Below, piece after piece: positions 1,565-48,865 of a stretch of 64,000 bases of DNA. A program made the position numbers and the translations under genes. Within the stretch, counting starts at the first letter, position 1; the number at the start of each line of letters is the position of its first letter. Below the pieces are notes generated by a model that searched no databases, had not been told where the DNA came from, and saw nothing but the letters and a program-made list of their open reading frames with translations. The DNA is from Candidatus Latescibacterota bacterium (GTDB lineage: Bacteria; Latescibacterota; CBDEFO01), in assembly GCA_965248755.1 (NCBI GenBank), contig OZ252149.1:1568001-1632000 (forward strand), read 5' to 3'.

Positions 1565-2113
1565 TTATCTCAATTGCAAGCTCATCTCAACACCTGTTCC
1601 TATTGGAACTAAAACGCTTTGGTATCTATCCCGCACATATTCAAGATAATCATGCATCCTGTCTTTGAACATTTCAGCATTGTCGGCAACTATTAGAGCG
1701 TCTTTTGTGAGTTTTGATTCCATCAGCTTAAAGTAGCTAATGTAGTCGCTTTTAACTGCATCAAGGAAGAGGAAATCAAACTTTTCCATTAGTTTAGGTA
1801 TCTCTTCTAACGCATCACCCTGAATCAGTTTTATGTTGCTTAATCCAACTTTTTTGAAGTTGTCTGCTGCCATTTTCGCCTTCGATTCGGAGATTTCGAT
1901 AGTTGTTACCTTCCCGCCATAAGATTTGGCCGCTTCTGCCAGCAATAAAGTCGAATAACCGTTGGAGGTTCCTACTTCCAGAATGTTATTTGGTCTTAAC
2001 GCCGAAACCAGTATGAAAAAGAACTTACCGGTCTCTGGGGGGATGTTGAAATAACCCTCATTGTTTCTTCCAAATATTTCCAATTCTTCAATTAAATGCT
2101 CTGTTGCTTTCAT
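1565..2113 (-). CDS. Class I SAM-dependent O-methyltransferase (YrrM-like); start codon now supplied by the IS left end
   Basis: ILEVGTSNGYS, FDFLFLDA and ADNA motifs; the ATG at 2113-2111 is the terminal 3 nt of the IS; the native start ATG GAT AAA G lies at 14582-14573. Confidence 0.85.
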   Translation of the reverse strand: MKATEHLIEELEIFGRNNEGYFNIPPETGKFFFILVSALRPNNILEVGTSNGYSTLLLAEAAKSYGGKVTTIEISESKAKMAADNFKKVGLSNIKLIQGDALEEIPKLMEKFDFLFLDAVKSDYISYFKLMESKLTKDALIVADNAEMFKDRMHDYLEYVRDRYQSVLVPIGTGVEMSLQLR

Positions 2114-2123
2114 ACCGCTCCCC

Positions 2124-2152
2124 TTGACAGAGCGACAAATATTTCGCAAATT
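2124..2152 (+). promoter_or_regulatory. Putative weak transposase promoter within the left IR
   Basis: TTGACA-17 bp-CAAATT upstream of GGGAGG and the orfA GTG. Confidence 0.4.
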
Positions 2153-2175
2153 GGGGTTTGAGAAGGGAGGTCAAG

Positions 2176-2487
2176 GTGTCGAGCCCCGAAGTGAAAGATG
2201 GTAAGCGCTGGACGGCGACCCGTAAGGGAGAGATTGTGTTGGCTCTTTTGAGAGGAGCAGATCTATCTGAGGTGTGTCGTAAGAATGGAATTAGCCAGTC
2301 GCAGGCGTATGCTTGGCGTGATAGTTTCTTAGAAGGGGGCCAGGAGAGTCTGAAGTCTCGGCGTGGTCGCAAGGATCCGAAGGAGCGAGAGGTTAGCCGG
2401 TTGGAGCGCAAGGTAGGGCAGTTGACGCTCCAGTTGGAGATACTCGAAGAGGTAGCCCGTCTAAAAAAAACGAAGCGGTTGCCTTGA
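2176..2487 (+). CDS. IS3-family transposase OrfA (HTH)
   Basis: HTH (LSEVCRKNGISQSQAYAWRD) plus a leucine-zipper-like tail; GTG start after GGGAGG. Confidence 0.9.
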   Translation: MSSPEVKDGKRWTATRKGEIVLALLRGADLSEVCRKNGISQSQAYAWRDSFLEGGQESLKSRRGRKDPKEREVSRLERKVGQLTLQLEILEEVARLKKTKRLP

Positions 2488-2495
2488 GTGGGCGG
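2463..2495 (+). promoter_or_regulatory. Programmed -1 frameshift signal producing OrfAB
   Basis: A8 run (A AAA AAA) at 2463-2470; the -1 frame is open into orfB; downstream GCC-TTGAGTG-GGC hairpin; established IS3 mechanism. Confidence 0.75.
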
Positions 2496-3347
2496 TTTTT
2501 GGGTCGAGGCTATTCCCGCAAGGTGGTAGCTTTGGCTTTGGGTTTGCATCGTTCGACTCTGTATAGGTTTAGGGATAGAGGTGTCAGTTCTTCTGTTAAA
2601 GAGCCTGTGATAGATGAGGAGCTTGCTTTTCGTATTCGAGGGATACTGGACCAAGAAGAGGCATTTGGTCACAGGCGGGTTTGGGCGCATCTTCGTTTCA
2701 AGGAAGGGGAATGTGTCAACGTTAAGAAGGTTCATAGGATAATGAAGCTTAAGGGGTGGCAGTGTAAGCTGTGGAATCGTCCCGGGAGAAAGGGGCCACA
2801 GGTTGCCCAGAAGCGTTCTGTGGTGGATAGTCCCGACAGTTTGTGGTCGAGTGACTTGACAAAGATTTACTGTGGAAAAGATGGTTGGTGTCCTCTTATT
2901 GCGGTGGTGGACAACGGAAGCCGGGAGGTTCCTGGGTATCGTTTTAGTCGAAAAGGGAGGGCACTGGAGGCCACAGATGCCCTGGATCGGGCCGTGATCT
3001 CTCGATACACTTCCAAGGAGGCTGTCCCCCAGGGTCTCACTTTGCGCTCTGACAATGGTTCCATCTTTTTGGCTCGGGCCTATTTGGCCAGTACCGAATA
3101 TTGGGGAATTCGTCAGGAATACATACCAAGTGGTAAACCCGATTGGAACGGTGTTGTAGAGCGTTTTTTCAGGACCCTCAAGCAAGAGTGTGTTTGGCTT
3201 CACAAGTTTGAATCCTTTGAACAGGCTGAGAAGATCATATCTCAGTGGATCGATAATTACAACAAGAACAGGCTTCATTCATCCCTGGGATATAAGACCC
3301 CAAAAGAGTGGAGAAAACAATTTTATCTACTACCCCAGGTTGCTTAA
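2484..3347 (+). CDS. IS3-family transposase OrfB (DDE integrase core)
   Basis: WSSDLT, LRSDNGS, NGVVERFFRTLKQE. Confidence 0.93.
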   Translation: MSGRFLGRGYSRKVVALALGLHRSTLYRFRDRGVSSSVKEPVIDEELAFRIRGILDQEEAFGHRRVWAHLRFKEGECVNVKKVHRIMKLKGWQCKLWNRPGRKGPQVAQKRSVVDSPDSLWSSDLTKIYCGKDGWCPLIAVVDNGSREVPGYRFSRKGRALEATDALDRAVISRYTSKEAVPQGLTLRSDNGSIFLARAYLASTEYWGIRQEYIPSGKPDWNGVVERFFRTLKQECVWLHKFESFEQAEKIISQWIDNYNKNRLHSSLGYKTPKEWRKQFYLLPQVA

Positions 3348-3376
3348 TTGGTGTCGCTTTCCTGGGAAGCAGTACA

Positions 3377-4026
3377 ATATTTCTTGGGCAGAAAGAATTC
3401 TTTTACCGCCCGGTGAGCACTTCGATAAAGAACAAAAGGTAGTAATAAAATGTTTTGAAACCAAAGATATTCTTGCCTGCCCGGGTAGTGGTAAAACAAA
3501 GGCTTTGATTGCCAAGTTGTTGATTTTGTCCCGGCAAATGCCTCTTGAAAATAATAGGGGTATTTGCGTATTAACTCACACAAATGTGGCTATAAATGAA
3601 ATAAAAAGCCACGCTTACTTTGCTTCTAAAAAGCTCTCTAATTACCCAAATCATTTTGGGACAATTCAAAGTTTCGTGGATAAATATCTTGCGATACCGA
3701 CGTATATCAATCAGTTCAACCGAAGACCATTATTCATAAACAACGAAATTTATCTTGATAGGATGGAAAGAACGAGAAAATATTTAGGTAGAAAAACAAA
3801 TGCATTTTGCTATCAGAGCGGTCATAAAGATTTGCCTTATTCACTTAGATTTGAAGATTTTTCCCTGGATGATAATGGTATATGTAAAAGACTTAAATTA
3901 GATTCAAATGATACAACTCAAAGAGCACACTATGATAGATTGCTAAGACTAAAAGAACGGATACTTTTGGATGGAATACTAAGCTATGATGATGCATATT
4001 ATATAGCAGAAAGACACATTGAAAAG
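3377..4026 (+). pseudogene. 5' fragment of UvrD-like (GajB-like) helicase; native start missing
   Basis: ACPGSGKT Walker A, LTHTNVAINEI, GTIQSF; bounded by element ends. Confidence 0.85.
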
Positions 4027-4446
4027 TGTACTGCCCCCCTGGAAAGCGACACCGATTAAGCAACTTGGGGTAGCAGATATTATTGTTTTCTCCATTCTTG
4101 CAGGGTCTTGTATCCCAGGGATGAATGAAGACGGTTCTTGTCGTAATTATCGATCCACTGAGATATGATCTTCTCAGCTTGCTCAAAGGATTCGAAGCTG
4201 TGAAGTCAAACACACTCTTGCTTGAGGGTCCTGAAAAAACGCTCTACAACACCGTTCCAATCGGCCTTTCCGCTCGGAACATATTCTTGACAAACCCCTA
4301 ATATTCGGTACTTACCAAATAGGATCTAGAAAGAAAGATCGAACCGTTGTCCAGCGCTAGCCGTCTTCTGCTCTGGCGCTGACATCTTGCCCTTCGCGAA
4401 CCCTGATTTACAGAATATCTGTCGTTCTGTGAAGGGGAACGGTATG
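4027..4446 (-). mobile_element. 420-bp non-autonomous mini-IS, copy 1
   Basis: Ends CATACCGTTCCCC...GGGGGGCAGTACA; orfA start fused to the orfB 3' end. Confidence 0.9.
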
Positions 4447-4508
4447 ATATGGCAACCACCCATCTTCGATTATCGCACCTATCTTCGATTATAAATAGCC
4501 TTCTTGTT

Positions 4509-5873
4509 TCAGTTATTACTACCTGCTAACAATTCCTTATTAACATCCCAACCACTTCTCTGCAGTGCTTCTTCTTGTCCGGTAATACTATCCTTATGAA
4601 CCGCAATGCAAAGGAGACGAGATGGACGTGACATCCCTACAAAAGCCATTTTTAGATTTTGAATTACTCTTTCTTTTGGCTTAGTATGCTCTCCCTTTAT
4701 ATAATTTATTATTCGCTTAATGTCATAGTCATAAAAGAAAGTTTCAAGGTAACATGTTGCCGTATGGGTTTCGCCTTTGACACCATGAATAGTTGAAACT
4801 TCTATGTCGATATCAGTTGTTCCAGAAGAATATTTGTAGATGTTATTGCTCGAATGGGTTTCTTCATCATCCGCTTCCAAATCTGATGAATTTATAAAGA
4901 TTGTAAGTTCAACATTCACCTGATAATTAAAAAACTCCTTAAATTCATTGGTTAGATAATGTTTTATTTCTTCAAAAACTTCTTCTTGCCTGTGTATCTT
5001 CAAACACCAATTGGCGAGCCTTACCCTAAAATCCTGGTAAAAATCCGAGTTTTTTTCTGATATATATTTATGCAGTTTTTTCTCTGTGAATGCCCTTCCA
5101 TCGTCAGTTACTCCTGCAATTCTTAAGCACTTTAAGAAAGCTTCCCCTAACCTCTTCTTGTAAAAATTAACTCCATTAGATGAAATAAAACTATCAGATT
5201 GTGGAGCTAAATAACTTTTTAGATTACTAAATTCAGTTTTTTTAACTTTTATTTCTTTGGAGTAGCCGTCCCAATAACTTGGTATAGTTCTTTTTGTGTC
5301 ATGCGGTTTTCCACGCCATCCAACTGCTTTAAATACCCTTTTCTCATTCTGATGTAGATTATTTCTGATAATTATTTCACCGAATTTATCTAATACCTGC
5401 TGAATAGTATAATCATCATAAACAATGATAACAGGAGTAATTTCATTTTGCCTGCCATTTCCCGTTATTGTCTGCCGGAAAACACAAAGTTTTTCAACCT
5501 TGCTTGCTATAGCGTTAGAAAATCTTTTACTACCTGTAATACACATAGTTCTGTCGTCAATTACTGCCCAACCGCATTCCAAGTTAGGGTCATAGTCAAA
5601 TATTGATTGATTTAAATCACCTATTTTTTGAATAACAACATTATCATTGAATATTTTATTCATCAGTTCGGACTGTATTGTACTTGAATCCTGCATTTCA
5701 TCTATGAAAACATAGGCAAATCTTTTTGCAAATACGTTTTTCAAATTAGGGTGCTTTTCAATGTGTCTTTCTGCTATATAATATGCATCATCATAGCTTA
5801 GTATTCCATCCAAAAGTATCCGTTCTTTTAGTCTTAGCAATCTATCATAGTGTGCTCTTTGAGTTGTATCATT
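4509..5873 (-). pseudogene. Central and 3' fragment of the UvrD-like helicase (inverted)
   Basis: VFIDEMQD, IGDLNQSIF, SKRF, STIHGVKGETH, FVGMSRP; overlaps the 5' fragment by 120 bp. Confidence 0.85.
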
Positions 5874-6293
5874 TGTACTGCCCCCCTGGAAAGCGACACC
5901 GATTAAGCAACTTGGGGTAGCAGATATTATTGTTTTCTCCATTCTTGCAGGGTCTTGTATCCCAGGGATGAATGAAGACGGTTCTTGTCGTAATTATCGA
6001 TCCACTGAGATATGATCTTCTCAGCTTGCTCAAAGGATTCGAAGCTGTGAAGTCAAACACACTCTTGCTTGAGGGTCCTGAAAAAACGCTCTACAACACC
6101 GTTCCAATCGGCCTTTCCGCTCGGAACATATTCTTGACAAACCCCTAATATTCGGTACTTACCAAATAGGATCTAGAAAGAAAGATCGAACCGTTGTCCA
6201 GCGCTAGCCGTCTTCTGCTCTGGCGCTGACATCTTGCCCTTCGCGAACCCCGATTTACAGAATATCTGTCGTTCTGTGAAGGGGAACGGTATG
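5874..6293 (-). mobile_element. 420-bp mini-IS, copy 2
   Basis: Matches copy 1 apart from one SNP seen. Confidence 0.9.
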
Positions 6294-6355
6294 ATATGGC
6301 AACCACCCATCTTCGATTATCGCACCTATCTTCGATTATAAATAGCCTTCTTGTT

Positions 6356-6738
6356 TCAGTTATTACTACCTGCTAACAATTCCTTATTAACATCCCAACC
6401 ACTTCTCTGCAGTGCTTCTTCTTGTCCGGTAATACTATCCTTATGAACCGCAATGCAAAGGAGACGAGATGGACGTGACATCCCTACAAAAGCCATTTTT
6501 AGATTTTGAATTACTCTTTCTTTTGGCTTAGTATGCTCTCCCTTTATATAATTTATTATTCGCTTAATGTCATAGTCATAAAAGAAAGTTTCAAGGTAAC
6601 ATGTTGCCGTATGGGTTTCGCCTTTGACACCATGAATAGTTGAAACTTCTATGTCGATATCAGTTGTTCCAGAAGAATATTTGTAGATGTTATTGCTCGA
6701 ATGGGTTTCTTCATCATCCGCTTCCAAATCTGATGAAT
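6356..6738 (-). pseudogene. 3' fragment of the helicase
   Basis: Repeats the helicase C-terminal sequence. Confidence 0.85.
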
Positions 6739-6767
6739 TGTACTGCTTCCCAGGAAAGCGACACCAA

Positions 6768-7631
6768 TTAAGCAACCTGGGGTAGTAGATAAAATTGTTT
6801 TCTCCACTCTTTTGGGGTCTTATATCCCAGGGATGAATGAAGCCTGTTCTTGTTGTAATTATCGATCCACTGAGATATGATCTTCTCAGCCTGTTCAAAG
6901 GATTCAAACTTGTGAAGCCAAACACACTCTTGCTTGAGGGTCCTGAAAAAACGCTCTACAACACCGTTCCAATCGGGTTTACCACTTGGTATGTATTCCT
7001 GACGAATTCCCCAATATTCGGTACTGGCCAAATAGGCCCGAGCCAAAAAGATGGAACCATTGTCAGAGCGCAAAGTGAGACCCTGGGGGACAGCCTCCTT
7101 GGAAGTGTATCGAGAGATCACGGCCCGATCCAGGGCATCTGTGGCCTCCAGTGCCCTCCCTTTTCGACTAAAACGATACCCAGGAACCTCCCGGCTTCCG
7201 TTGTCCACCACCGCAATAAGAGGACACCAACCATCTTTTCCACAGTAAATCTTTGTCAAGTCACTCGACCACAAACTGTCGGGACTATCCACCACAGAAC
7301 GCTTCTGGGCAACCTGTGGCCCCTTTCTCCCGGGACGATTCCACAGCTTACACTGCCACCCCTTAAGCTTCATTATCCTATGAACCTTCTTAACGTTGAC
7401 ACATTCCCCTTCCTTGAAACGAAGATGCGCCCAAACCCGCCTGTGACCAAATGCCTCTTCTTGGTCCAGTATCCCTCGAATACGAAAAGCAAGCTCCTCA
7501 TCTATCACAGGCTCTTTAACAGAAGAACTGACACCTCTATCCCTAAACCTATACAGAGTCGAACGATGCAAACCCAAAGCCAAAGCTACCACCTTGCGGG
7601 AATAGCCTCGACCCAAAAACCGCCCACTCAA
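6768..7631 (-). CDS. IS3-family transposase OrfB
   Basis: Identical protein to copy 1. Confidence 0.93.
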   Translation of the reverse strand: MSGRFLGRGYSRKVVALALGLHRSTLYRFRDRGVSSSVKEPVIDEELAFRIRGILDQEEAFGHRRVWAHLRFKEGECVNVKKVHRIMKLKGWQCKLWNRPGRKGPQVAQKRSVVDSPDSLWSSDLTKIYCGKDGWCPLIAVVDNGSREVPGYRFSRKGRALEATDALDRAVISRYTSKEAVPQGLTLRSDNGSIFLARAYLASTEYWGIRQEYIPSGKPDWNGVVERFFRTLKQECVWLHKFESFEQAEKIISQWIDNYNKNRLHSSLGYKTPKEWRKQFYLLPQVA

Positions 7632-7939
7632 GGCAACCGCTTCGTTTTTTTTAGACGGGCTACCTCTTCGAGTATCTCCAACTGGAGCGTCAACTGCCCT
7701 ACCTTGCGCTCCAACCGGCTAACCTCTCGCTCCTTCGGATCCTTGCGACCACGCCGAGACTTCAGACTCTCCTGGCCCCCTTCTAAGAAACTATCACGCC
7801 AAGCATACGCCTGCGACTGGCTAATTCCATTCTTACGACACACCTCAGATAGATCTGCTCCTCTCAAAAGAGCCAACACAATCTCTCCCTTACGGGTCGC
7901 CGTCCAGCGCTTACCATCTTTCACTTCGGGGCTCGACAC
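7628..7939 (-). CDS. IS3-family transposase OrfA
   Basis: Identical protein to copy 1. Confidence 0.9.
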   Translation of the reverse strand: MSSPEVKDGKRWTATRKGEIVLALLRGADLSEVCRKNGISQSQAYAWRDSFLEGGQESLKSRRGRKDPKEREVSRLERKVGQLTLQLEILEEVARLKKTKRLP

Positions 7940-8004
7940 CTTGACCTCCCTTCTCAAACCCCAATTTGCGAAATATTTGTCGCTCTGTCAAGGGGAGCGG
8001 TATG

Positions 8005-8245
8005 CCTTGAAACTTTCTTTTATGACTATGACATTAAGCGAATAATAAATTATATAAAGGGAGAGCATACTAAGCCAAAAGAAAGAGTAATTCAAAATCT
8101 AAAAATGGCTTTTGTAGGGATGTCACGTCCATCTCGTCTCCTTTGCATTGCGGTTCATAAGGATAGTATTACCGGACAAGAAGAAGCACTGCAGAGAAGT
8201 GGTTGGGATGTTAATAAGGAATTGTTAGCAGGTAGTAATAACTGA
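8005..8245 (+). pseudogene. Short 3' fragment of the helicase
   Basis: LETFFYDYD...LAGSNN*. Confidence 0.8.
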
Positions 8246-8307
8246 AACAAGAAGGCTATTTATAATCGAAGATAGGTGCGATAATCGAAGATGGGTGGTT
8301 GCCATAT

Positions 8308-8727
8308 CATACCGTTCCCCTTCACAGAACGACAGATATTCTGTAAATCGGGGTTCGCGAAGGGCAAGATGTCAGCGCCAGAGCAGAAGACGGCTAGCGC
8401 TGGACAACGGTTCGATCTTTCTTTCTAGATCCTATTTGGTAAGTACCGAATATTAGGGGTTTGTCAAGAATATGTTCCGAGCGGAAAGGCCGATTGGAAC
8501 GGTGTTGTAGAGCGTTTTTTCAGGACCCTCAAGCAAGAGTGTGTTTGACTTCACAGCTTCGAATCCTTTGAGCAAGCTGAGAAGATCATATCTCAGTGGA
8601 TCGATAATTACGACAAGAACCGTCTTCATTCATCCCTGGGATACAAGACCCTGCAAGAATGGAGAAAACAATAATATCTGCTACCCCAAGTTGCTTAATC
8701 GGTGTCGCTTTCCAGGGGGGCAGTACA
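8308..8727 (+). mobile_element. 420-bp mini-IS, copy 3
   Basis: Same ends and body as the other copies. Confidence 0.9.
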
Positions 8728-9329
8728 AGATTGCTAAGACTAAAAGAACGGATACTTTTGGATGGAATACTAAGCTATGATGATGCATATTATATAGCAG
8801 AAAGACACATTGAAAAGCACCCTAATTTGAAAAACGTATTTGCAAAAAGATTTGCCTATGTTTTCATAGATGAAATGCAGGATTCAAGTACAATACAGTC
8901 CGAACTGATGAATAAAATATTCAATGATAATGTTGTTATTCAAAAAATAGGTGATTTAAATCAATCAATATTTGACTATGACCCTAACTTGGAATGCGGT
9001 TGGGCAGTAATTGACGACAGAACTATGTGTATTACAGGTAGTAAAAGATTTTCTAACGCTATAGCAAGCAAGGTTGAAAAACTTTGTGTTTTCCGGCAGA
9101 CAATAACGGGAAATGGCAGGCAAAATGAAATTACTCCTGTTATCATTGTTTATGATGATTATACTATTCAGCAGGTATTAGATAAATTCGGTGAAATAAT
9201 TATCAGAAATAATCTACATCAGAATGAGAAAAGGGTATTTAAAGCAGTTGGATGGCGTGGAAAACCGCATGACACAAAAAGAACTATACCAAGTTATTGG
9301 TGTACTGCTTCCCAGGAAAGCGACACCAA

Positions 9330-10193
9330 TTAAGCAACCTGGGGTAGTAGATAAAATTGTTTTCTCCACTCTTTTGGGGTCTTATATCCCAGGGATGAAT
9401 GAAGCCTGTTCTTGTTGTAATTATCGATCCACTGAGATATGATCTTCTCAGCCTGTTCAAAGGATTCAAACTTGTGAAGCCAAACACACTCTTGCTTGAG
9501 GGTCCTGAAAAAACGCTCTACAACACCGTTCCAATCGGGTTTACCACTTGGTATGTATTCCTGACGAATTCCCCAATATTCGGTACTGGCCAAATAGGCC
9601 CGAGCCAAAAAGATGGAACCATTGTCAGAGCGCAAAGTGAGACCCTGGGGGACAGCCTCCTTGGAAGTGTATCGAGAGATCACGGCCCGATCCAGGGCAT
9701 CTGTGGCCTCCAGTGCCCTCCCTTTTCGACTAAAACGATACCCAGGAACCTCCCGGCTTCCGTTGTCCACCACCGCAATAAGAGGACACCAACCATCTTT
9801 TCCACAGTAAATCTTTGTCAAGTCACTCGACCACAAACTGTCGGGACTATCCACCACAGAACGCTTCTGGGCAACCTGTGGCCCCTTTCTCCCGGGACGA
9901 TTCCACAGCTTACACTGCCACCCCTTAAGCTTCATTATCCTATGAACCTTCTTAACGTTGACACATTCCCCTTCCTTGAAACGAAGATGCGCCCAAACCC
10001 GCCTGTGACCAAATGCCTCTTCTTGGTCCAGTATCCCTCGAATACGAAAAGCAAGCTCCTCATCTATCACAGGCTCTTTAACAGAAGAACTGACACCTCT
10101 ATCCCTAAACCTATACAGAGTCGAACGATGCAAACCCAAAGCCAAAGCTACCACCTTGCGGGAATAGCCTCGACCCAAAAACCGCCCACTCAA
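9330..10193 (-). CDS. IS3-family transposase OrfB
   Basis: Identical protein to copy 1. Confidence 0.93.
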   Translation of the reverse strand: MSGRFLGRGYSRKVVALALGLHRSTLYRFRDRGVSSSVKEPVIDEELAFRIRGILDQEEAFGHRRVWAHLRFKEGECVNVKKVHRIMKLKGWQCKLWNRPGRKGPQVAQKRSVVDSPDSLWSSDLTKIYCGKDGWCPLIAVVDNGSREVPGYRFSRKGRALEATDALDRAVISRYTSKEAVPQGLTLRSDNGSIFLARAYLASTEYWGIRQEYIPSGKPDWNGVVERFFRTLKQECVWLHKFESFEQAEKIISQWIDNYNKNRLHSSLGYKTPKEWRKQFYLLPQVA

Positions 10194-10501
10194 GGCAACC
10201 GCTTCGTTTTTTTTAGACGGGCTACCTCTTCGAGTATCTCCAACTGGAGCGTCAACTGCCCTACCTTGCGCTCCAACCGGCTAACCTCTCGCTCCTTCGG
10301 ATCCTTGCGACCACGCCGAGACTTCAGACTCTCCTGGCCCCCTTCTAAGAAACTATCACGCCAAGCATACGCCTGCGACTGGCTAATTCCATTCTTACGA
10401 CACACCTCAGATAGATCTGCTCCTCTCAAAAGAGCCAACACAATCTCTCCCTTACGGGTCGCCGTCCAGCGCTTACCATCTTTCACTTCGGGGCTCGACA
10501 C
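10190..10501 (-). CDS. IS3-family transposase OrfA
   Basis: Identical protein to copy 1. Confidence 0.9.
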   Translation of the reverse strand: MSSPEVKDGKRWTATRKGEIVLALLRGADLSEVCRKNGISQSQAYAWRDSFLEGGQESLKSRRGRKDPKEREVSRLERKVGQLTLQLEILEEVARLKKTKRLP

Positions 10502-11394
10502 CTTGACCTCCCTTCTCAAACCCCAATTTGCGAAATATTTGTCGCTCTGTCAAGGGGAGCGGTATGTTGGGACGGCTACTCCAAAGAAATAAAAGTTAAA
10601 AAAACTGAATTTAGTAATCTAAAAAGTTATTTAGCTCCACAATCTGATAGTTTTATTTCATCTAATGGAGTTAATTTTTACAAGAAGAGGTTAGGGGAAG
10701 CTTTCTTAAAGTGCTTAAGAATTGCAGGAGTAACTGACGATGGAAGGGCATTCACAGAGAAAAAACTGCATAAATATATATCAGAAAAAAACTCGGATTT
10801 TTACCAGGATTTTAGGGTAAGGCTCGCCAATTGGTGTTTGAAGATACACAGGCAAGAAGAAGTTTTTGAAGAAATAAAACATTATCTAACCAATGAATTT
10901 AAGGAGTTTTTTAATTATCAGGTGAATGTTGAACTTACAATCTTTATAAATTCATCAGATTTGGAAGCGGATGATGAAGAAACCCATTCGAGCAATAACA
11001 TCTACAAATATTCTTCTGGAACAACTGATATCGACATAGAAGTTTCAACTATTCATGGTGTCAAAGGCGAAACCCATACGGCAACATGTTACCTTGAAAC
11101 TTTCTTTTATGACTATGACATTAAGCGAATAATAAATTATATAAAGGGAGAGCATACTAAGCCAAAAGAAAGAGTAATTCAAAATCTAAAAATGGCTTTT
11201 GTAGGGATGTCACGTCCATCTCGTCTCCTTTGCATTGCGGTTCATAAGGATAGTATTACCGGACAAGAAGAAGCACTGCAGAGAAGTGGTTGGGATGTTA
11301 ATAAGGAATTGTTAGCAGGTAGTAATAACTGAAACAAGAAGGCTATTTATAATCGAAGATAGGTGCGATAATCGAAGATGGGTGGTTGCCATAT

Positions 11395-11814
11395 CATACC
11401 GTTCCCCTTCACAGAACGACAGATATTCTGTAAATCGGGGTTCGCGAAGGGCAAGATGTCAGCGCCAGAGCAGAAGACGGCTAGCGCTGGACAACGGTTC
11501 GATCTTTCTTTCTAGATCCTATTTGGTAAGTACCGAATATTAGGGGTTTGTCAAGAATATGTTCCGAGCGGAAAGGCCGATTGGAACGGTGTTGTAGAGC
11601 GTTTTTTCAGGACCCTCAAGCAAGAGTGTGTTTGACTTCACAGCTTCGAATCCTTTGAGCAAGCTGAGAAGATCATATCTCAGTGGATCGATAATTACGA
11701 CAAGAACCGTCTTCATTCATCCCTGGGATACAAGACCCTGCAAGAATGGAGAAAACAATAATATCTGCTACCCCAAGTTGCTTAATCGGTGTCGCTTTCC
11801 AGGGGGGCAGTACA
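11395..11814 (+). mobile_element. 420-bp mini-IS, copy 4
   Basis: Same ends and body as the other copies. Confidence 0.9.
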
Positions 11815-12087
11815 CGCTATAGCAAGCAAGGTTGAAAAACTTTGTGTTTTCCGGCAGACAATAACGGGAAATGGCAGGCAAAATGAAATTACTCCTGTTA
11901 TCATTGTTTATGATGATTATACTATTCAGCAGGTATTAGATAAATTCGGTGAAATAATTATCAGAAATAATCTACATCAGAATGAGAAAAGGGTATTTAA
12001 AGCAGTTGGATGGCGTGGAAAACCGCATGACACAAAAAGAACTATACCAAGTTATTGGTGTACTGCTTCCCAGGAAAGCGACACCAA

Positions 12088-12951
12088 TTAAGCAACCTGG
12101 GGTAGTAGATAAAATTGTTTTCTCCACTCTTTTGGGGTCTTATATCCCAGGGATGAATGAAGCCTGTTCTTGTTGTAATTATCGATCCACTGAGATATGA
12201 TCTTCTCAGCCTGTTCAAAGGATTCAAACTTGTGAAGCCAAACACACTCTTGCTTGAGGGTCCTGAAAAAACGCTCTACAACACCGTTCCAATCGGGTTT
12301 ACCACTTGGTATGTATTCCTGACGAATTCCCCAATATTCGGTACTGGCCAAATAGGCCCGAGCCAAAAAGATGGAACCATTGTCAGAGCGCAAAGTGAGA
12401 CCCTGGGGGACAGCCTCCTTGGAAGTGTATCGAGAGATCACGGCCCGATCCAGGGCATCTGTGGCCTCCAGTGCCCTCCCTTTTCGACTAAAACGATACC
12501 CAGGAACCTCCCGGCTTCCGTTGTCCACCACCGCAATAAGAGGACACCAACCATCTTTTCCACAGTAAATCTTTGTCAAGTCACTCGACCACAAACTGTC
12601 GGGACTATCCACCACAGAACGCTTCTGGGCAACCTGTGGCCCCTTTCTCCCGGGACGATTCCACAGCTTACACTGCCACCCCTTAAGCTTCATTATCCTA
12701 TGAACCTTCTTAACGTTGACACATTCCCCTTCCTTGAAACGAAGATGCGCCCAAACCCGCCTGTGACCAAATGCCTCTTCTTGGTCCAGTATCCCTCGAA
12801 TACGAAAAGCAAGCTCCTCATCTATCACAGGCTCTTTAACAGAAGAACTGACACCTCTATCCCTAAACCTATACAGAGTCGAACGATGCAAACCCAAAGC
12901 CAAAGCTACCACCTTGCGGGAATAGCCTCGACCCAAAAACCGCCCACTCAA
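12088..12951 (-). CDS. IS3-family transposase OrfB
   Basis: Identical protein to copy 1. Confidence 0.93.
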   Translation of the reverse strand: MSGRFLGRGYSRKVVALALGLHRSTLYRFRDRGVSSSVKEPVIDEELAFRIRGILDQEEAFGHRRVWAHLRFKEGECVNVKKVHRIMKLKGWQCKLWNRPGRKGPQVAQKRSVVDSPDSLWSSDLTKIYCGKDGWCPLIAVVDNGSREVPGYRFSRKGRALEATDALDRAVISRYTSKEAVPQGLTLRSDNGSIFLARAYLASTEYWGIRQEYIPSGKPDWNGVVERFFRTLKQECVWLHKFESFEQAEKIISQWIDNYNKNRLHSSLGYKTPKEWRKQFYLLPQVA

Positions 12952-13259
12952 GGCAACCGCTTCGTTTTTTTTAGACGGGCTACCTCTTCGAGTATCTCCA
13001 ACTGGAGCGTCAACTGCCCTACCTTGCGCTCCAACCGGCTAACCTCTCGCTCCTTCGGATCCTTGCGACCACGCCGAGACTTCAGACTCTCCTGGCCCCC
13101 TTCTAAGAAACTATCACGCCAAGCATACGCCTGCGACTGGCTAATTCCATTCTTACGACACACCTCAGATAGATCTGCTCCTCTCAAAAGAGCCAACACA
13201 ATCTCTCCCTTACGGGTCGCCGTCCAGCGCTTACCATCTTTCACTTCGGGGCTCGACAC
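12948..13259 (-). CDS. IS3-family transposase OrfA
   Basis: Identical protein to copy 1. Confidence 0.9.
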   Translation of the reverse strand: MSSPEVKDGKRWTATRKGEIVLALLRGADLSEVCRKNGISQSQAYAWRDSFLEGGQESLKSRRGRKDPKEREVSRLERKVGQLTLQLEILEEVARLKKTKRLP

Positions 13260-14152
13260 CTTGACCTCCCTTCTCAAACCCCAATTTGCGAAATATTTGT
13301 CGCTCTGTCAAGGGGAGCGGTATGTTGGGACGGCTACTCCAAAGAAATAAAAGTTAAAAAAACTGAATTTAGTAATCTAAAAAGTTATTTAGCTCCACAA
13401 TCTGATAGTTTTATTTCATCTAATGGAGTTAATTTTTACAAGAAGAGGTTAGGGGAAGCTTTCTTAAAGTGCTTAAGAATTGCAGGAGTAACTGACGATG
13501 GAAGGGCATTCACAGAGAAAAAACTGCATAAATATATATCAGAAAAAAACTCGGATTTTTACCAGGATTTTAGGGTAAGGCTCGCCAATTGGTGTTTGAA
13601 GATACACAGGCAAGAAGAAGTTTTTGAAGAAATAAAACATTATCTAACCAATGAATTTAAGGAGTTTTTTAATTATCAGGTGAATGTTGAACTTACAATC
13701 TTTATAAATTCATCAGATTTGGAAGCGGATGATGAAGAAACCCATTCGAGCAATAACATCTACAAATATTCTTCTGGAACAACTGATATCGACATAGAAG
13801 TTTCAACTATTCATGGTGTCAAAGGCGAAACCCATACGGCAACATGTTACCTTGAAACTTTCTTTTATGACTATGACATTAAGCGAATAATAAATTATAT
13901 AAAGGGAGAGCATACTAAGCCAAAAGAAAGAGTAATTCAAAATCTAAAAATGGCTTTTGTAGGGATGTCACGTCCATCTCGTCTCCTTTGCATTGCGGTT
14001 CATAAGGATAGTATTACCGGACAAGAAGAAGCACTGCAGAGAAGTGGTTGGGATGTTAATAAGGAATTGTTAGCAGGTAGTAATAACTGAAACAAGAAGG
14101 CTATTTATAATCGAAGATAGGTGCGATAATCGAAGATGGGTGGTTGCCATAT

Positions 14153-14572
14153 CATACCGTTCCCCTTCACAGAACGACAGATATTCTGTAAATCAGGGTT
14201 CGCGAAGGGCAAGATGTCAGCGCCAGAGCAGAAGACGGCTAGCGCTGGACAACGGTTCGATCTTTCTTTCTAGATCCTATTTGGTAAGTACCGAATATTA
14301 GGGGTTTGTCAAGAATATGTTCCGAGCGGAAAGGCCGATTGGAACGGTGTTGTAGAGCGTTTTTTCAGGACCCTCAAGCAAGAGTGTGTTTGACTTCACA
14401 GCTTCGAATCCTTTGAGCAAGCTGAGAAGATCATATCTCAGTGGATCGATAATTACGACAAGAACCGTCTTCATTCATCCCTGGGATACAAGACCCTGCA
14501 AGAATGGAGAAAACAATAATATCTGCTACCCCAAGTTGCTTAATCGGTGTCGCTTTCCAGGGGGGCAGTACA
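14153..14572 (+). mobile_element. 420-bp mini-IS, copy 5 (right boundary of the composite)
   Basis: Followed by the CTTT target duplication. Confidence 0.9.
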
Positions 14573-14692
14573 CTTTATCCATTTTGAATCTTATAGGTTT
14601 CGGGTTTCATAAACACTTTCAGGACGCACCTGTCCCCGACTACATCACTGATAAGAGATCTGAATATATGTTTGGGTATATGTAGGGAGGCA

Positions 14693-21386: not shown

Positions 21387-21605
21387 AGAATTCCTCCTAG
21401 TATAAAGATTTCTGATATCCTGTCTTGGTGATCGCAGTTCAACAAGTTGACTGCACAGACTCAATTTTTTCATTAGTGAGAGAATTTACGAAATTTTCCT
21501 GCCAAGATCAAGCACAATTCCGGGAAAAATAGTAGAGGCTCATACCGCTCCCCTTGACAGAGCGACAAATATTTCGCAAATTGGGGTTTGAGAAGGGAGG
21601 TCAAG

Positions 21606-21917
21606 GTGTCGAGCCCCGAAGTGAAAGATGGTAAGCGCTGGACGGCGACCCGTAAGGGAGAGATTGTGTTGGCTCTTTTGAGAGGAGCAGATCTATCTGA
21701 GGTGTGTCGTAAGAATGGAATTAGCCAGTCGCAGGCGTATGCTTGGCGTGATAGTTTCTTAGAAGGGGGCCAGGAGAGTCTGAAGTCTCGGCGTGGTCGC
21801 AAGGATCCGAAGGAGCGAGAGGTTAGCCGGTTGGAGCGCAAGGTAGGGCAGTTGACGCTCCAGTTGGAGATACTCGAAGAGGTAGCCCGTCTAAAAAAAA
21901 CGAAGCGGTTGCCTTGA
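21606..21917 (+). CDS. IS3-family transposase OrfA
   Basis: Identical protein to copy 1. Confidence 0.9.
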   Translation: MSSPEVKDGKRWTATRKGEIVLALLRGADLSEVCRKNGISQSQAYAWRDSFLEGGQESLKSRRGRKDPKEREVSRLERKVGQLTLQLEILEEVARLKKTKRLP

Positions 21918-22777
21918 GTGGGCGGTTTTTGGGTCGAGGCTATTCCCGCAAGGTGGTAGCTTTGGCTTTGGGTTTGCATCGTTCGACTCTGTATAGGTTT
22001 AGGGATAGAGGTGTCAGTTCTTCTGTTAAAGAGCCTGTGATAGATGAGGAGCTTGCTTTTCGTATTCGAGGGATACTGGACCAAGAAGAGGCATTTGGTC
22101 ACAGGCGGGTTTGGGCGCATCTTCGTTTCAAGGAAGGGGAATGTGTCAACGTTAAGAAGGTTCATAGGATAATGAAGCTTAAGGGGTGGCAGTGTAAGCT
22201 GTGGAATCGTCCCGGGAGAAAGGGGCCACAGGTTGCCCAGAAGCGTTCTGTGGTGGATAGTCCCGACAGTTTGTGGTCGAGTGACTTGACAAAGATTTAC
22301 TGTGGAAAAGATGGTTGGTGTCCTCTTATTGCGGTGGTGGACAACGGAAGCCGGGAGGTTCCTGGGTATCGTTTTAGTCGAAAAGGGAGGGCACTGGAGG
22401 CCACAGATGCCCTGGATCGGGCCGTGATCTCTCGATACACTTCCAAGGAGGCTGTCCCCCAGGGTCTCACTTTGCGCTCTGACAATGGTTCCATCTTTTT
22501 GGCTCGGGCCTATTTGGCCAGTACCGAATATTGGGGAATTCGTCAGGAATACATACCAAGTGGTAAACCCGATTGGAACGGTGTTGTAGAGCGTTTTTTC
22601 AGGACCCTCAAGCAAGAGTGTGTTTGGCTTCACAAGTTTGAATCCTTTGAACAGGCTGAGAAGATCATATCTCAGTGGATCGATAATTACAACAAGAACA
22701 GGCTTCATTCATCCCTGGGATATAAGACCCCAAAAGAGTGGAGAAAACAATTTTATCTACTACCCCAGGTTGCTTAA
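21914..22777 (+). CDS. IS3-family transposase OrfB
   Basis: Identical protein to copy 1. Confidence 0.93.
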   Translation: MSGRFLGRGYSRKVVALALGLHRSTLYRFRDRGVSSSVKEPVIDEELAFRIRGILDQEEAFGHRRVWAHLRFKEGECVNVKKVHRIMKLKGWQCKLWNRPGRKGPQVAQKRSVVDSPDSLWSSDLTKIYCGKDGWCPLIAVVDNGSREVPGYRFSRKGRALEATDALDRAVISRYTSKEAVPQGLTLRSDNGSIFLARAYLASTEYWGIRQEYIPSGKPDWNGVVERFFRTLKQECVWLHKFESFEQAEKIISQWIDNYNKNRLHSSLGYKTPKEWRKQFYLLPQVA

Positions 22778-22806
22778 TTGGTGTCGCTTTCCTGGGAAGC
22801 AGTACA

Positions 22807-44247: not shown

Positions 44248-45951
44248 TCATCTGAGCTCTTTGAAGTATTCGGAGGCCAGCACCTGTTCTGAAACGCGGC
44301 TCATCTGGTAGCGTTCGCACAGGAGGATATAGGTGTCTATCAGTCTGGCGCGCTCCCCCGCTTCCATTTCCCCTCCTGCAAGGATCATCGCCTTGTAAGC
44401 GGAGATCGAAGCCTTCTCTACACGTGCCTGGACGTCGTCATCGTCCGCAAGCGTTAGAGCTTGCTCAAAGTAGTCGAGGGCCTTCTGCGAGACCTCCGGA
44501 TTCAGACCTGCCTCCTCTGGCGTCGGAAAGCGCGGGTGAACTCCCAGTTCTTCGGCGTTGTCATGGAGCATGTTGATGTAATTCATAATTGGTTGAGCTG
44601 CGCTCTTGTAGTGCAGCCTGACAAATTCCTCCAGGATAGCTTGATCATCCAGTTGCTGATTCCAGATCATTTTCCCGATCAGAAAATTCCTAATATCGCA
44701 GAGTTCCCCTGTCCTTCCGTTGTAGTTAGCCTGCATGAACACGCCCTTTGCGTTGTTGCGCAGGAAGTAGCGGACGTTCGGACCGATGGCGCGCAGATTT
44801 GGGAACGGCAGATCGTAAATGCTGAAATTGGTGTTGTAGTTCCAGACCCAGATGTCATTGCAGATCTTCCCCCACTCATACATATCCTGACAGAATGCGT
44901 GATTCTTCTCGCACTTAGGATCATCTATAGGGTGGAGGGTGCAGCATTCGATGCTGCAAAGCTGGATCTGGACGTTATGTCGCGGTCGCATGGTCACCGG
45001 CGGCTTGCGGGTGTACTGGTAAGCAAGCGTGCCGACTTTGACGTCCGGGTGTGCCTTTTCTACATGCTCTGCCACAGCGTTGACGAACGCAAGTTGTGAT
45101 CCCATCGGTGCCCCTTCACGCTCGTTGATCTCCTCGCAAGAGTCGCACCTGCAGTACGCACGCGTATCCGCCTGGCTTACACTTACGTTTTTGCTCTGGG
45201 GATTTTCATCTAGGCTCTTAATCGCAGCTTCTGCAGCAACCTGGATGACTTCCGGGTTTGTGACACACAACTGCGGTCCGGCGCCGTACTTGTCGGTATG
45301 GCGCTTTCCGTCCACCAGCGCGTAGTATTCCGGGTGATGTGCGCCGTATTCATCGAAGGGCACCAGCCTGTGGAAGGAGTGGTTGATGAGAGTCTGCTGC
45401 GTCCTGCCCCCCAACTTTTCATCGTCTGTCACTGTGTTTACCCGCAGTCGCGCCGCAAATTCCGGGTGCTCCATATTCTCCAGGTAAGCGCTCCAACGGA
45501 ACGAAAATGGTGGATTGTATATATATGTCCCGCAGGGAATCCTGGGGGCAGACGCATCCGGAACGTGAGTGTGGTCATACGTGAGGAAGCGCACATGAAA
45601 GAAATCTTCCAGGAACTGATAGACACCGTAGAGCGTGCCGCGGGGACGCCCGCCAGAAATAATGACGTGATCACTCTCTACGACGATCTGCAGCTCCTCT
45701 TCTCCCAATGCGGCAGAATCAAAAGCCGCAGCATCCGGACCTATATAGACGTGATCGGCTCTCTCCTGGGCGGTCGACCGCAATGGAAGTTCTATTCCCG
45801 TGGCCTTCCCGAACCACTTCAGGAACTCTTCGGCTGCATACTTTTCAGAGGGGATCGCCTCGGCGGAGACCACAACATCCCAGCCGCGCATCCGGGAGCA
45901 GTCTAATGTACCTTCTGATGGTTGATGAGAGAGAGTTTTCGAGATTGACAT
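44248..45951 (-). CDS. DUF4838 domain protein, paralog 1
   Basis: RGTLYGVYQFLE, HPEYYALVDGKR, QLCVTNP, TLAY. Confidence 0.85.
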   Translation of the reverse strand: MSISKTLSHQPSEGTLDCSRMRGWDVVVSAEAIPSEKYAAEEFLKWFGKATGIELPLRSTAQERADHVYIGPDAAAFDSAALGEEELQIVVESDHVIISGGRPRGTLYGVYQFLEDFFHVRFLTYDHTHVPDASAPRIPCGTYIYNPPFSFRWSAYLENMEHPEFAARLRVNTVTDDEKLGGRTQQTLINHSFHRLVPFDEYGAHHPEYYALVDGKRHTDKYGAGPQLCVTNPEVIQVAAEAAIKSLDENPQSKNVSVSQADTRAYCRCDSCEEINEREGAPMGSQLAFVNAVAEHVEKAHPDVKVGTLAYQYTRKPPVTMRPRHNVQIQLCSIECCTLHPIDDPKCEKNHAFCQDMYEWGKICNDIWVWNYNTNFSIYDLPFPNLRAIGPNVRYFLRNNAKGVFMQANYNGRTGELCDIRNFLIGKMIWNQQLDDQAILEEFVRLHYKSAAQPIMNYINMLHDNAEELGVHPRFPTPEEAGLNPEVSQKALDYFEQALTLADDDDVQARVEKASISAYKAMILAGGEMEAGERARLIDTYILLCERYQMSRVSEQVLASEYFKELR

Positions 45952-47281
45952 ATAAGGCCTCCAGTTGTTAATTGAAAAGATTACAGTAGTGGTGCCAACT
46001 CGCTGGTCAGCTCAAAAGCTGAGGCAGCCGCTGAATTCACGCTGGATCCATTATTATTCCGCGCCGTCAGAACGACAAAACACCCGAGTCCTTTTGATTT
46101 AGAGATCGGTGCTGTGACAGGGAGACAGAATTCACCTGAGCTCCTTGAAGTATTCGGAGGCCTGCACTTGCTCTGAAACGTGGCTCATCTGATAGCGTTT
46201 GCACAGGGCGATATAGTGTTCGATCAGTCTGGCGCGCTCCCCCGCTTCCATGTCCCCTCCTGCAACGATCATCGCCTTGTAAGCGGAGATCGAAGCCTTC
46301 TCGACACGCACCCGGACGTTGTCATCTTCAGCAAGAGCCAGAGCCTGCTCAAAGTAGTCGAAGGCTCTCCGTGAGAGCTCCGAATTCAGTCCTATTTCCT
46401 CTGGTGATGGGAAGCAGCCCGGGTGAACCCCTTTCTTTTCGGCGTTGTCATGGAGCATGTTGATATAGTCCATGATTAGCTCCGCTGCGCCCTTGTAGTG
46501 CAGGCCGACAAATTCCTCCAGTACAGCCCGATCATCCAGGTGCGGATTCCAGATCATTTTCCCGATCAGGTAATTCCTAATATCGCAAAGTTCACCTGTC
46601 CTGCCGTTGTGGTTACCCTGCATGAACACGCCCTTCGCGTTGTTGCCCAGAAAGTAGCGCACGTTCGGGCCGATGGAGCGCAGATTTGGGAAGGGCAGAT
46701 CGTAAATGCTGAAATTGGTGTTGTAGTTCCAGACCCAGATGTCATCACACATCTTCCCCCATTCATCCGTATCCTGGCAGAATGCTCTATTTTTCTCGCA
46801 ATTTGGGTCATCTATTGGGTGGAGGGTGCAGCACTCGATGCTGCAAAGCTGGATCTGGATGTTATGTCGCGGTCGGATAGTTTTAGGCGGCTTGCGGGTG
46901 TACCAATAGGCAAGCGTGCCGACTTTGGCGTCCGCATGTGCTCTTTCTACACGCTCAGCTACAGCGTTGACGAACGTCAGTTGCGCGCCCATAGGCGTGC
47001 CTTCGCGTTGATTGATCTCCTCGCACGGGTCACACCGGCAGTACGCATCGGTATCCGCCTGGCTGACACTGACGTTTTTTATCTCAGGATTTTCATCCAG
47101 ATATCTAATCGCCGCATCAGCGGCAATCCGGATGACTTCCGGGTTTGTGACACACAACTGCGGACCGGCGCCGTGCTTGTCGGTATGACGCTTTCCGTCT
47201 ACCAGTGCGTAATACTCCGTGTGATCTGTGTACTGCCCCCCTGGAAAGCGACACCGATTAAGCAACTTGGGGTAGCAGATA

Positions 47282-48121
47282 TTATTGTTTTCTCCATTCT
47301 TGCAGGGTCTTGTATCCCAGGGATGAATGAAGCCTGTTCTTGTTGTAATTATCGATCCACTGAGATATGATCTTCTCAGCCTGTTCAAAGGATTCAAACT
47401 TGTGAAGCCAAACACACTCTTGCTTGAGGGTCCTGAAAAAACGCTCTACAACACCGTTCCAATCGGGTTTACCACTTGGTATGTATTCCTGACGAATTCC
47501 CCAATATTCGGTACTGGCCAAATAGGCCCGAGCCAAAAAGATGGAACCATTGTCAGAGCGCAAAGTGAGACCCTGGGGGACAGCCTCCTTGGAAGTGTAT
47601 CGAGAGATCACGGCCCGATCCAGGGCATCTGTGGCCTCCAGTGCCCTCCCTTTTCGACTAAAACGATACCCAGGAACCTCCCGGCTTCCGTTGTCCACCA
47701 CCGCAATAAGAGGACACCAACCATCTTTTCCACAGTAAATCTTTGTCAAGTCACTCGACCACAAACTGTCGGGACTATCCACCACAGAACGCTTCTGGGC
47801 AACCTGTGGCCCCTTTCTCCCGGGACGATTCCACAGCTTACACTGCCACCCCTTAAGCTTCATTATCCTATGAACCTTCTTAACGTTGACACATTCCCCT
47901 TCCTTGAAACGAAGATGCGCCCAAACCCGCCTGTGACCAAATGCCTCTTCTTGGTCCAGTATCCCTCGAATACGAAAAGCAAGCTCCTCATCTATCACAG
48001 GCTCTTTAACAGAAGAACTGACACCTCTATCCCTAAACCTATACAGAGTCGAACGATGCAAACCCAAAGCCAAAGCTACCACCTTGCGGGAATAGCCTCG
48101 ACCCAAAAACCGCCCACTCAA
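47282..48121 (-). CDS. IS3-family transposase OrfB (hybrid, 8 aa shorter)
   Basis: Ends TLQEWRKQ*. Confidence 0.9.
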   Translation of the reverse strand: MSGRFLGRGYSRKVVALALGLHRSTLYRFRDRGVSSSVKEPVIDEELAFRIRGILDQEEAFGHRRVWAHLRFKEGECVNVKKVHRIMKLKGWQCKLWNRPGRKGPQVAQKRSVVDSPDSLWSSDLTKIYCGKDGWCPLIAVVDNGSREVPGYRFSRKGRALEATDALDRAVISRYTSKEAVPQGLTLRSDNGSIFLARAYLASTEYWGIRQEYIPSGKPDWNGVVERFFRTLKQECVWLHKFESFEQAEKIISQWIDNYNKNRLHSSLGYKTLQEWRKQ

Positions 48122-48429: not shown

Positions 48430-48865
48430 CTTGACCTCCCTTCTCAAACCCCAATTTGCGAAATATTTGTCGCTCTGTCAAGGGGAGCGGTATGTCTGCA
48501 CCGTACTCATCGAAGGGCACCAGCATGCGGAAGGAGTGGTTGATGAGAGTCTGCTGTGTCTTGCCCCCCAACTTTTCATCGTCTGTGACTGTATTTACCC
48601 GCAGGCGCGCAGCGAATTCCGGGTGCTCCCTATTCTCATAGTAAGCGCTCCACCGGAACGAAAATGGTGGATTGTATGTATATGTCCCGCAGGATATTCT
48701 GGGGGCAGACGCCTCCGGGACGTGCGTTTGGTCATGCGTGAGGAAGAGCACATGAAAGAAATCTTCGAGGAACTGATAGACTCCGTAGAGCGTGCCGCGG
48801 GGACGCCCGCCAGAAATAATGACGTGATCACTCTCTACGACGATCTGCAGCTCCTCCTCTCCTAT

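Follow-up and report, generated by a model that had tools for sequence, protein, structure and literature searches.

Members of the IS3 family of insertion sequences (IS) carry the consensus dinucleotide CA-3' at both termini, within imperfect terminal inverted repeats, and are expected to be flanked by target duplications of 3-5 bp. Here we consider what an element of this type has made of one locus, a composite transposon of 12,462 bp (positions 2111-14572) in a 64,000-nucleotide window of a Candidatus Latescibacterota genome (the window being the whole stretch of DNA analysed), in which a 1266-bp element, ISa, and a 420-bp mini-IS accompany 1957 bp of cargo derived from gajB, a gene of the Gabija defence system.

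IS2 is a known exception to the terminal rule, having a TA-3' terminus, and its right end is the exclusive donor in step I of transposition (PMC3299598). ISa resembles IS2 in having orfA and orfB in the -1 frame with an A-rich window, a DDE transposase, a length of about 1.3 kb and the canonical CA-3' at its right end only, and 14 of 15 relatives at 52-63% identity have the TA left end of IS2, in a group that shows a junction-promoter layout. It differs in its left end, which begins 5'-CA here and in all 13 relatives at >=72% identity, in its 4-bp duplication, and in its OrfB, which reaches no more than 59 bits against the model for IS2 TnpB (cut-off 597).

Cascades of rearrangements comparable to those seen here have been described for IS30 (PMC9333248). 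In common with the IS30/IS911 network, with its IR-IR junctions, its insertion aimed at IRs and its series of deletions and inversions (PMC9333248, PMC2909936), the locus has nested rearrangements with breakpoints at element tips, an event that targeted a resident left end, and an insertion (the c531/c533 event below) in register with a left-end-like site; on the other hand, no right-left junction survives here, the inversion described below used a host pseudo-end 2 bp off and made a 4-bp duplication, and IS30 belongs to another family. Tn6330 (ISApl1-mcr-1-ISApl1; PMC5821093) likewise arose by two insertions around a chromosomal gene, with inner junctions fixed and outer ends changing, with a shortened right-hand element that keeps its right end and still seems mobile, and with apparent single-ended forms that result from later deletion, but the cargo of the present composite is a decapitated defence gene without evident benefit, and the composite grows by self-insertion rather than changing by IS loss.

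In the long-term evolution of E. coli, deletions adjacent to IS150 made up 14 of 68 events, occurring in two steps, from 14 bp and growing (PMC11708052); IS3-family copies without target duplication are common to both cases, but the IS150 events concern solo elements, whereas those described here are nested composites with tandem and inverted cargo. Units of variable length bounded by one true end, and an imperfect end used once, recall ISEcp1 (IS1380 family) and IS91 (PMC12589106, PMC13181058); their enzymes are different, however, and their units disperse (with a 5-bp duplication for ISEcp1, between ori and ter for IS91), while none has dispersed here. Finally, the native locus has gajA followed by gajB, as in the PADLOC models of Gabija, but ISa at codon 10 splits gajB from gajA and leaves gajB as disrupted transposon cargo.

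Anatomy of the composite and the partners of its junctions

Self-comparison and block mapping yielded a 17-block model that matches positions 2111-14572 letter for letter (Table 1; cargo nucleotides are written c1 to c1957, R and L denote right and left element ends, and a colon marks a junction). The original prediction that a 3643-bp ancestor (ISa, cargo and mini-IS) had grown to 12,462 bp is thus borne out, as are the common junction GCCATAT:CATACC at all five mini left ends and the positions of the right-end joins at c650 (inverted), c531, c561 and c890, and at c1513 for ISa copy 2. The whole structure is a single insertion with an outer 4-bp duplication, CTTT, in the first codons of an O-methyltransferase gene, and the empty site with one CTTT is present in a genome of the same genus (G002). 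The claim that every breakpoint lies at an element end holds for the internal joins, which all fall at element tips in the block map, with the reservation that at 4026/4027 the cargo starts with CTTT, as in the outer duplication, so that the true break there may be as much as 4 nt beyond the element tip. The window also contains left-end junctions that had escaped notice, ISa L:c1655 (8004/8005) and ISa L:c1130 (10566 and 13324), the latter being one half of an ordinary insertion with a CCAA duplication. The head-to-tail repeat at 11815-14572 does copy 9057-11814, with one mismatch, at mini position 43, where the minis of the two units carry G (mini 4) and A (mini 5), both pre-existing alleles.

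Table 1. Blocks and features of the composite and its flanks (window positions)
Feature	Position	Strand	Remarks
Target duplication CTTT, left copy	2107-2110	+	codons 3-4 of minus-strand O-methyltransferase gene; one CTTT in G002 empty site
ISa copy 1, 1266 bp	2111-3376	+	left end 5'-CATACC, right end GTACA-3'; composite left arm
orfA, 109 aa, HTH	2158-2487	+	A8 run 2463-2470, putative -1 frameshift site
orfB, 287 aa, rve/DDE	2484-3347	+	D124, D190, E226
Cargo 1-650	3377-4026	+	gajB from codon 10; includes Walker A
Mini-IS 1, allele A43	4027-4446	-	right end joins c650 inverted; partner junction not found
Cargo 531-1957, inverted	4447-5873	-	
Mini-IS 2, allele G43	5874-6293	-	right end joins c531; partner c533:ISa L at G000 1643511, 3-bp AAT duplication
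Cargo 1513-1957, inverted	6294-6738	-	
ISa copy 2, recombinant	6739-8004	-	right flank c1513 (also at 1642246); left flank c1655 (partner R:c1658 at 2435923)
Cargo 1655-1957	8005-8307	+	
Mini-IS 3, allele G43	8308-8727	+	right end joins c561; junction recurs at G000 1641381; contig of run X20 breaks at c561
Cargo 561-1133	8728-9300	+	
ISa copy 3	9301-10566	-	ordinary insertion at c1130-1133, CCAA duplication; recurs at G000 2710-2718 kb
Cargo 1130-1957	10567-11394	+	
Mini-IS 4, allele G43	11395-11814	+	right end joins c890; partner junction not found
Tandem copy of 9057-11814	11815-14572	+	cargo 890-1133, ISa copy 4 (12059-13324, minus), cargo 1130-1957, mini-IS 5
Mini-IS 5, allele A43	14153-14572	+	outer right end of composite
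Target duplication CTTT, right copy	14573-14576	+	

The composite left arm is present at nine loci of the genome (coordinates G000), the birth site included. It had been argued that the fixed left junction of the minis is a sign of right-end-only chemistry; this junction is indeed kept in all 14 minis of the genome, but the left-hand ISa copies keep their inner R:c1 junction just as strictly (9/9, with nine different left flanks), and the fixed junctions of mini and ISa are the inner ends of the composite. The structure is a composite transposon that has moved as a unit, with outer duplications CTTT and AAAC in place, and a 1745-bp derivative has moved with an ATCC duplication and, into the cargo itself, with CTTA. 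This derivative consists of ISa, 59 bp and a mini (G000 786134-787878, 1637181-1640556, 464002-465746) and arose from an ISa insertion at c1899-1902, the parent state of which stands at 859596.

Most new junctions between element ends and cargo have partners. Among 24 in the genome (14 right, 10 left), 18 form nine left/right pairs, eight with a 4-bp and one with a 3-bp duplication, and all 29 cargo segments end at an element end, none (0/29) at a free cargo:host junction with a duplication; the proposal that right-end-only transfer makes units of cargo and mini is largely unsupported by these counts, no such unit having dispersed by itself. The eight new junctions in the window comprise two that form an in-place duplication pair (c1130/c1133), two with partners at other loci (L:c1655 with R:c1658 at 2435 kb, and R:c531 with c533:L at 1643 kb, a pairing with a chance of about 0.012), two that recur at 1641-1642 kb (R:c1513 and R:c561), and only two that are unique (c650 and c890). 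Over the whole genome, a left partner sharing a duplication of 4 or 5 bp exists for 57 of the 74 distinct right flanks, locally for 52 and at a distance for 5; local pairing, sought at 4 and 5 bp only, gave a 4-bp duplication at 51 of the 52 sites and a 5-bp duplication at one.

Exchange between copies is also evident. ISa 6739-8004 joins the flanks of two separate insertions that are seen at other loci, and recombination therefore took place here. The loci at 1636, 2434 and 2708 kb, which share junctions with the window, have exchanged their outer duplications TGTT, CTAA and ATAG among one another, and the rejoined sites give stop-free frames of 257 codons for TGTT and 298 for CTAA, though only 107 for ATAG. 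Given that the minis of the tandem units carry different alleles, import seems to fit them better than copying in place.

In our view most of the structure was probably made by two-ended copy-out/paste-in insertions combined with homologous recombination, and the apparently one-ended pattern is mostly known transposon chemistry. A young and very active IS3-type element, now with about 64 full copies, would have inserted at codon 10 of the host gajB, and ISa and an old mini-IS just downstream would have formed the 3643-bp composite, with the left end of ISa and the right end of the mini, which would then have spread to eight further loci. Lying beside active ends, the AT-rich cargo would have become a preferred target for the IS and for shortened composites, the insertions coming, we infer, from circles or from end-to-end junctions formed in the chromosome (right with left, or right with a host pseudo-end), and homologous recombination between identical IS and cargo copies would have deleted halves of insertions and carried ready-made junctions between loci. 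The excess of partnerless right ends would follow from geometry, as direct self-insertion would leave the left junction in a direct repeat that collapses, and probably also from an asymmetry like that of IS2, with the right end alone initiating the reaction. In silico, the 12,462 bp can be rebuilt exactly by a route with five insertions, all two-ended, and three collapses of identical direct repeats, if the donor unit ISa-c1513-mini-c531-mini, the junctions of which occur at the 1636-kb locus, is granted.

Several observations weigh against this account. Four right orphans (c561, c650, c890 and c1513) stand against one left, each requiring an extra recombination or deletion step, and the c531/c533 pair has 3 bp instead of the usual 4. 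A right-left (circle or dimer) junction was found neither in the genome nor in the metagenome collection (0 matches among contigs, which drop rare forms). Contig depth over the cargo is about 4-9 times that of the flank, against 9-13 assembled copies, and although depth is not copy number, some cargo copies may be absent from part of the cells. The in-silico rebuild, too, is a demonstration of sufficiency and not of history.

Right-end orphans, the chromosomal inversion and other explanations

The possibility that the orphans at c561, c650, c890 and c1513 are true single-end events, as in the original prediction but within IS3-family chemistry, seems to us unlikely, though less so than the other alternatives. 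Here a right-end 3'-OH would attack nearby cargo instead of the left end, in the manner of a mis-aimed figure-eight, and host replication or recombination would resolve the product into a deletion or a tandem or inverted duplication. Genome-wide, the four partnerless right junctions are met by one partnerless left junction, c1295, whose element has lost its right flank and which also fits loss on the right side; c561 occupies the place expected for c531 at the 1636-kb locus, a 30-bp loss beside a right end; and the left end lacks CA-3' throughout the clade. The right end is the exclusive donor in IS2 (PMC3299598), and the figure-eight step has been termed one-ended site-specific transposition (PMC9333248). 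The IS2 case, with the adjacent deletions that are common for IS150 (PMC11708052), gives right-biased behaviour a precedent in this family and does not support the assertion that it is unusual for IS3. Against single-end transfer, the targets are not left-end-like apart from c531, the tandem-unit minis differ by an old allele, the inverted block would still require recombination at ISa copy 2, and the sole right-end event open to full reconstruction involved two ends and left a duplication of 4 bp. One-ended insertion is also attributed to IS911.

The left-end-like pentamers GATAC, TATAG and CATCA, to which the original prediction had drawn attention 3 bp into three attacked sites, do not stand up as a signal: no enrichment was found at offsets 0-5, and at offset 3 at least three of the five CATAC positions matched in 4 of 12 partnerless against 12 of 57 paired right flanks (p=0.28). 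The c531 site alone is left-end-like (7/10), a score reached by 18 of 3894 cargo positions.

The reconstructed event is a chromosomal inversion. A second empty site of G002 is split in the present genome, its right half adjoining an ISa left end at 4058696, while its left half, two bases short, ends in TACA-3' like the true right end and runs at 464001 into three bases of flank plus the left end of an ISa; the reciprocal strand connects to the mini right end at 4064155, and GTCT is duplicated. The event targeted a resident left end, with the top strand cut 3 nt outside it. The simplest reading, we infer, is that the right end served together with a host pseudo-end, at a distance of 2 bp, as an end-to-end junction that was pasted beside the resident left end, inverting a large segment of the chromosome. 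On this reconstruction the right end can react where it stands, though here by chemistry that involves two ends. The reciprocal junctions lie at G000 463998-464002, 4058696 and 4064155 (L083), the ends being at 464 kb and 4064 kb. For the orphans, G002 is informative as an outgroup only at this 464/4058-kb site, the gajAB locus and three other flanks not being found in G002, which is 96% complete, and further comparisons giving paralogous matches only.

The R:c531 junction of the window also reads right end, 2 bp, TG, and we speculate that this pseudo-end-like layout might have seeded the 30-bp loss that gave R:c561. Right flanks at large carry no such pseudo-end signal, TG standing at offset 2 in 1/22 unpaired against 2/52 paired ones. 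At c561, c650, c890 and c1513 the sequence is compatible both with two-ended insertion plus recombination and with single-end transfer. What survives of the right-end idea is that partnerless junctions are mostly right-ended (4 against 1), that the left end is non-canonical, and that one right end reacted in place; the rest is unsupported.

It is improbable that replication switching templates at microhomology beside an element end, and not the transposase, made some of the junctions, chiefly the inversion at 4026/4027. The CTTT at that junction equals the outer right flank, both minis concerned carry the rarer A allele, and a hybrid of left and right ends formed at microhomology exists at G000 2434658 (TGTACCGCTC); but this would account for one junction only, CTTT occurs at 39 of 3914 cargo positions (1%, or about 4-5% by chance over the orphans), and the inverted block holds the c531 and c1513 junctions, which are missing from the forward arm.

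Equally improbable is a chimeric assembly, in which the inner arrangement would have been put together from the nine composite loci. In its favour, no record spans the structure, and neither a spanning piece nor the single-copy inner junctions were found among the listed pieces of the read assemblies (245 further pieces lay outside the listing); run X21 yields one unbranched 1957-bp cargo contig, cargo depth is below the assembled copy number, and several junctions are common to other loci. On the other side, the sequences flanking the composite together make up a single empty site, and contigs from runs X19-X21, which represent one sample, possibly the source, hold both outer junctions and break at the branch points c561 and c1130; the c650 and c890 junctions are unique and coincide precisely with the terminal CA, the genome consists of a single closed contig of 4.54 Mb, and run contigs drop rare branches. 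The small-share runs X1-X18 form no part of this read evidence. Depth over the IS in these runs is about 50 times that of the flank, and run X23, from another study, contains a contig of exactly the 1266-bp ISa.

The likeness that the original prediction saw to ISEcp1/IS91-type transposition, in which one true end mobilises variable lengths of adjoining DNA, can be set aside as very improbable: the units of cargo fragment and mini do vary in length and end at the right end, and the single use of a host pseudo-end loosely recalls the imperfect repeats of ISEcp1, but the enzyme is an IS3-type DDE transposase and neither HUH nor IS1380, the ends are inverted repeats with 4-bp duplications and not ori/ter, and the lack of any dispersed one-ended unit largely refutes it.

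The IS element and its ends

OrfB passes the NCBIfam model transpos_IS3 (208 bits, cut-off 160) and has an IS3-type rve domain of D(35)E spacing, in which the catalytic D124, D190 and E226, together with K233 (E+7), are conserved in 32 sequences. orfA and orfB overlap in the -1 frame at a slippery A8 run, and frameshifting is putative. With its imperfect terminal inverted repeats and target duplications the element falls within the IS3 family, but the consensus CA-3' is present at one end only, and it is classed as an atypical variant. The left end reads 5'-CATAC, and 88 of the 89 left ends of the genome begin 5'-CA, that is TG-3', while the right end is CA-3', so that the left end would have to be cut at TG-3' instead of CA-3'.

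The survey of ends covered 37 of 80 metagenome loci at 52-95% identity, with left ends located in 28, and left out viral loci, which are at most 43% identical over long matches. It gave the gradient of left-end dinucleotides described above, and one locus at 42% identity, with a 4-bp duplication, has a TG left end. In the 52-63% group the left end is TATACT, with TTGACT or TTGACA 17 nt from the right tip; by clade (L093-L129) the left-end hexamers are TATACT at 52-63% and CATNCY at >=72%, which suggests a junction promoter with a 0-1 bp spacer. A zero-spacer junction model with a shared CA was considered and has no direct support. Together with the orphan bias, the end sequences are compatible with an IS2-like right-end donor.

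Full-length ISa is present in the genome in 47 copies, 45 of them identical, beside 15 copies of ISb, 3 of ISc and 14 minis. ISb is 22 bp longer than ISa, with orfB split, and its 15 near-identical copies, mostly with 4-bp duplications (G000 862446-863733 and 14 other sites), represent a non-autonomous variant moved in trans. That the mini is immobile alone for want of a transposase in cis is weakened by the movement of these 15 frameshifted copies; a degenerate left end seems the more likely reason that it does not hop alone. One insertion site, the ISb site at 2928862, is common to G002 and unchanged on both sides, and from their coordinates the closest relatives of the IS appear to lie in G002. 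At G000 2434658-2434670 an ISa left end begins TGTACC, a hybrid with the mini right end through 3-bp microhomology, giving that copy canonical TG...CA termini.

At the left edge of the composite, the ISa left end (2111-2113) reads outward AAGGGGAG-CGGT-ATG and restarts the interrupted O-methyltransferase (1565-2110, minus strand) in frame, with MKATE against the native MDKATE; genome-wide, such outward ATGs at left ends show no enrichment for restoring genes (8 against 5 and 4 in the other frames, of 73). Elsewhere in the window, a solo ISa copy (21541-22806) has a GGCT duplication, and a solo ISc copy (47229-48494), with a CAGA duplication and a stop in orfB, sits in the middle one of three tandem paralogues (44248-51192), the two outer ones, the only ones scanned, being DUF4838 proteins. 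The window further encodes an 813-aa protein with 13.5 FG-GAP repeats of 147 bp (51705-54146) and contains five exact-like copies of a 14-bp tandem repeat, AGGATTAGGTCTCA (56939-57009).

Two other regions of the genome are rearranged around IS copies. G000 852076-865321 holds, within a gene with repeats of about 1 kb at 91-95% identity, a composite with an inversion and with its mini right end joined to the interior of an ISa (nt 1185), and in the 65 kb of G000 4017054-4082061 several IS copies lack local duplications and TCAT and TTGC halves are swapped between 4018 and 4081 kb.

The Gabija cargo and its meaning

The cargo is gajB without its first nine codons. At the birth site (G000 1280495) ISa lies at codon 10 of gajB with an ATAT duplication, behind an intact gajA (L001 6601-8463), and the PADLOC matches at this native locus are gajA (OLD nuclease; E 8e-217) followed by gajB (helicase; E 7e-191). 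None of the nine gajB copies has start codon, Walker A and C-terminus in one frame, and the disruptions differ between copies; as gajA is not accompanied by an intact gajB, the cargo is a Gabija remnant. The intact composite carries a 693-codon frame that reads through from the IS into gajB. A type IIG restriction-methyltransferase-like gene lies directly upstream of gajA (L001 3356-6580), in a defence island. Elements of the IS1380 family have also inserted in cargo and ISa copies (L003 7474-8871, G000 2701-2718 kb and 1638-1640 kb), the assignment resting on 385 bits with NCBIfam for the L003 copy.

Paired insertion sites are AT-rich (39% against 49% GC), and no target consensus beyond AT richness was found in them. 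In AT-rich DNA outside the elements, insertions come at about one per 14-16 kb, a background thinned by selection on genes, while the 20.6 kb of cargo has received 9 paired events, or 14 in total, where 1.45 would be expected (P 2e-5 and 5e-10). This excess could reflect local targeting from neighbouring ends, for which the IS30 network is a precedent (PMC9333248), or selection against GajB expression, although the available portion of PMC10781630 gave no support for toxicity of excess GajB.

In the literature searched, neither a self-nested composite of IS3 type like this one nor a left end beginning 5'-CA was described, which is weak evidence given that most subscription papers, supplements, the primary IS911 papers and ISfinder lay outside the search. 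The locus, for which birth site, nine copies, shortened derivatives, paired junction halves and the empty site of an outgroup are all known, documents the self-rearrangement of a copy-out/paste-in composite with unusual completeness. It shows that two-ended insertion and recombination can mimic one-ended amplification, a caution for arrays read from one window. The clade-wide TG-3' left end raises a testable question about end recognition by DDE transposases, the inversion by a right end acting with a host pseudo-end, which cleanly duplicated 4 bp, is a notable genomic case, and the serial loss of gajB in all nine copies could be used to ask whether GajB dosage is harmful.

More speculatively, and with doubt, the right end may be a free-standing donor in the chromosome that recruits a nearby left end or a host pseudo-end at 2 bp, or acts with no partner at all, in a lineage that gave up its canonical left terminus (TG to TA to CA), and the IS-GajB frame beside an intact gajA may be harmful, its nine copies having been knocked out independently. 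Were this true, the locus would record both a right-end amplifier, capable of serial duplication, deletion and inversion of adjacent DNA, and selection against unbalanced Gabija.

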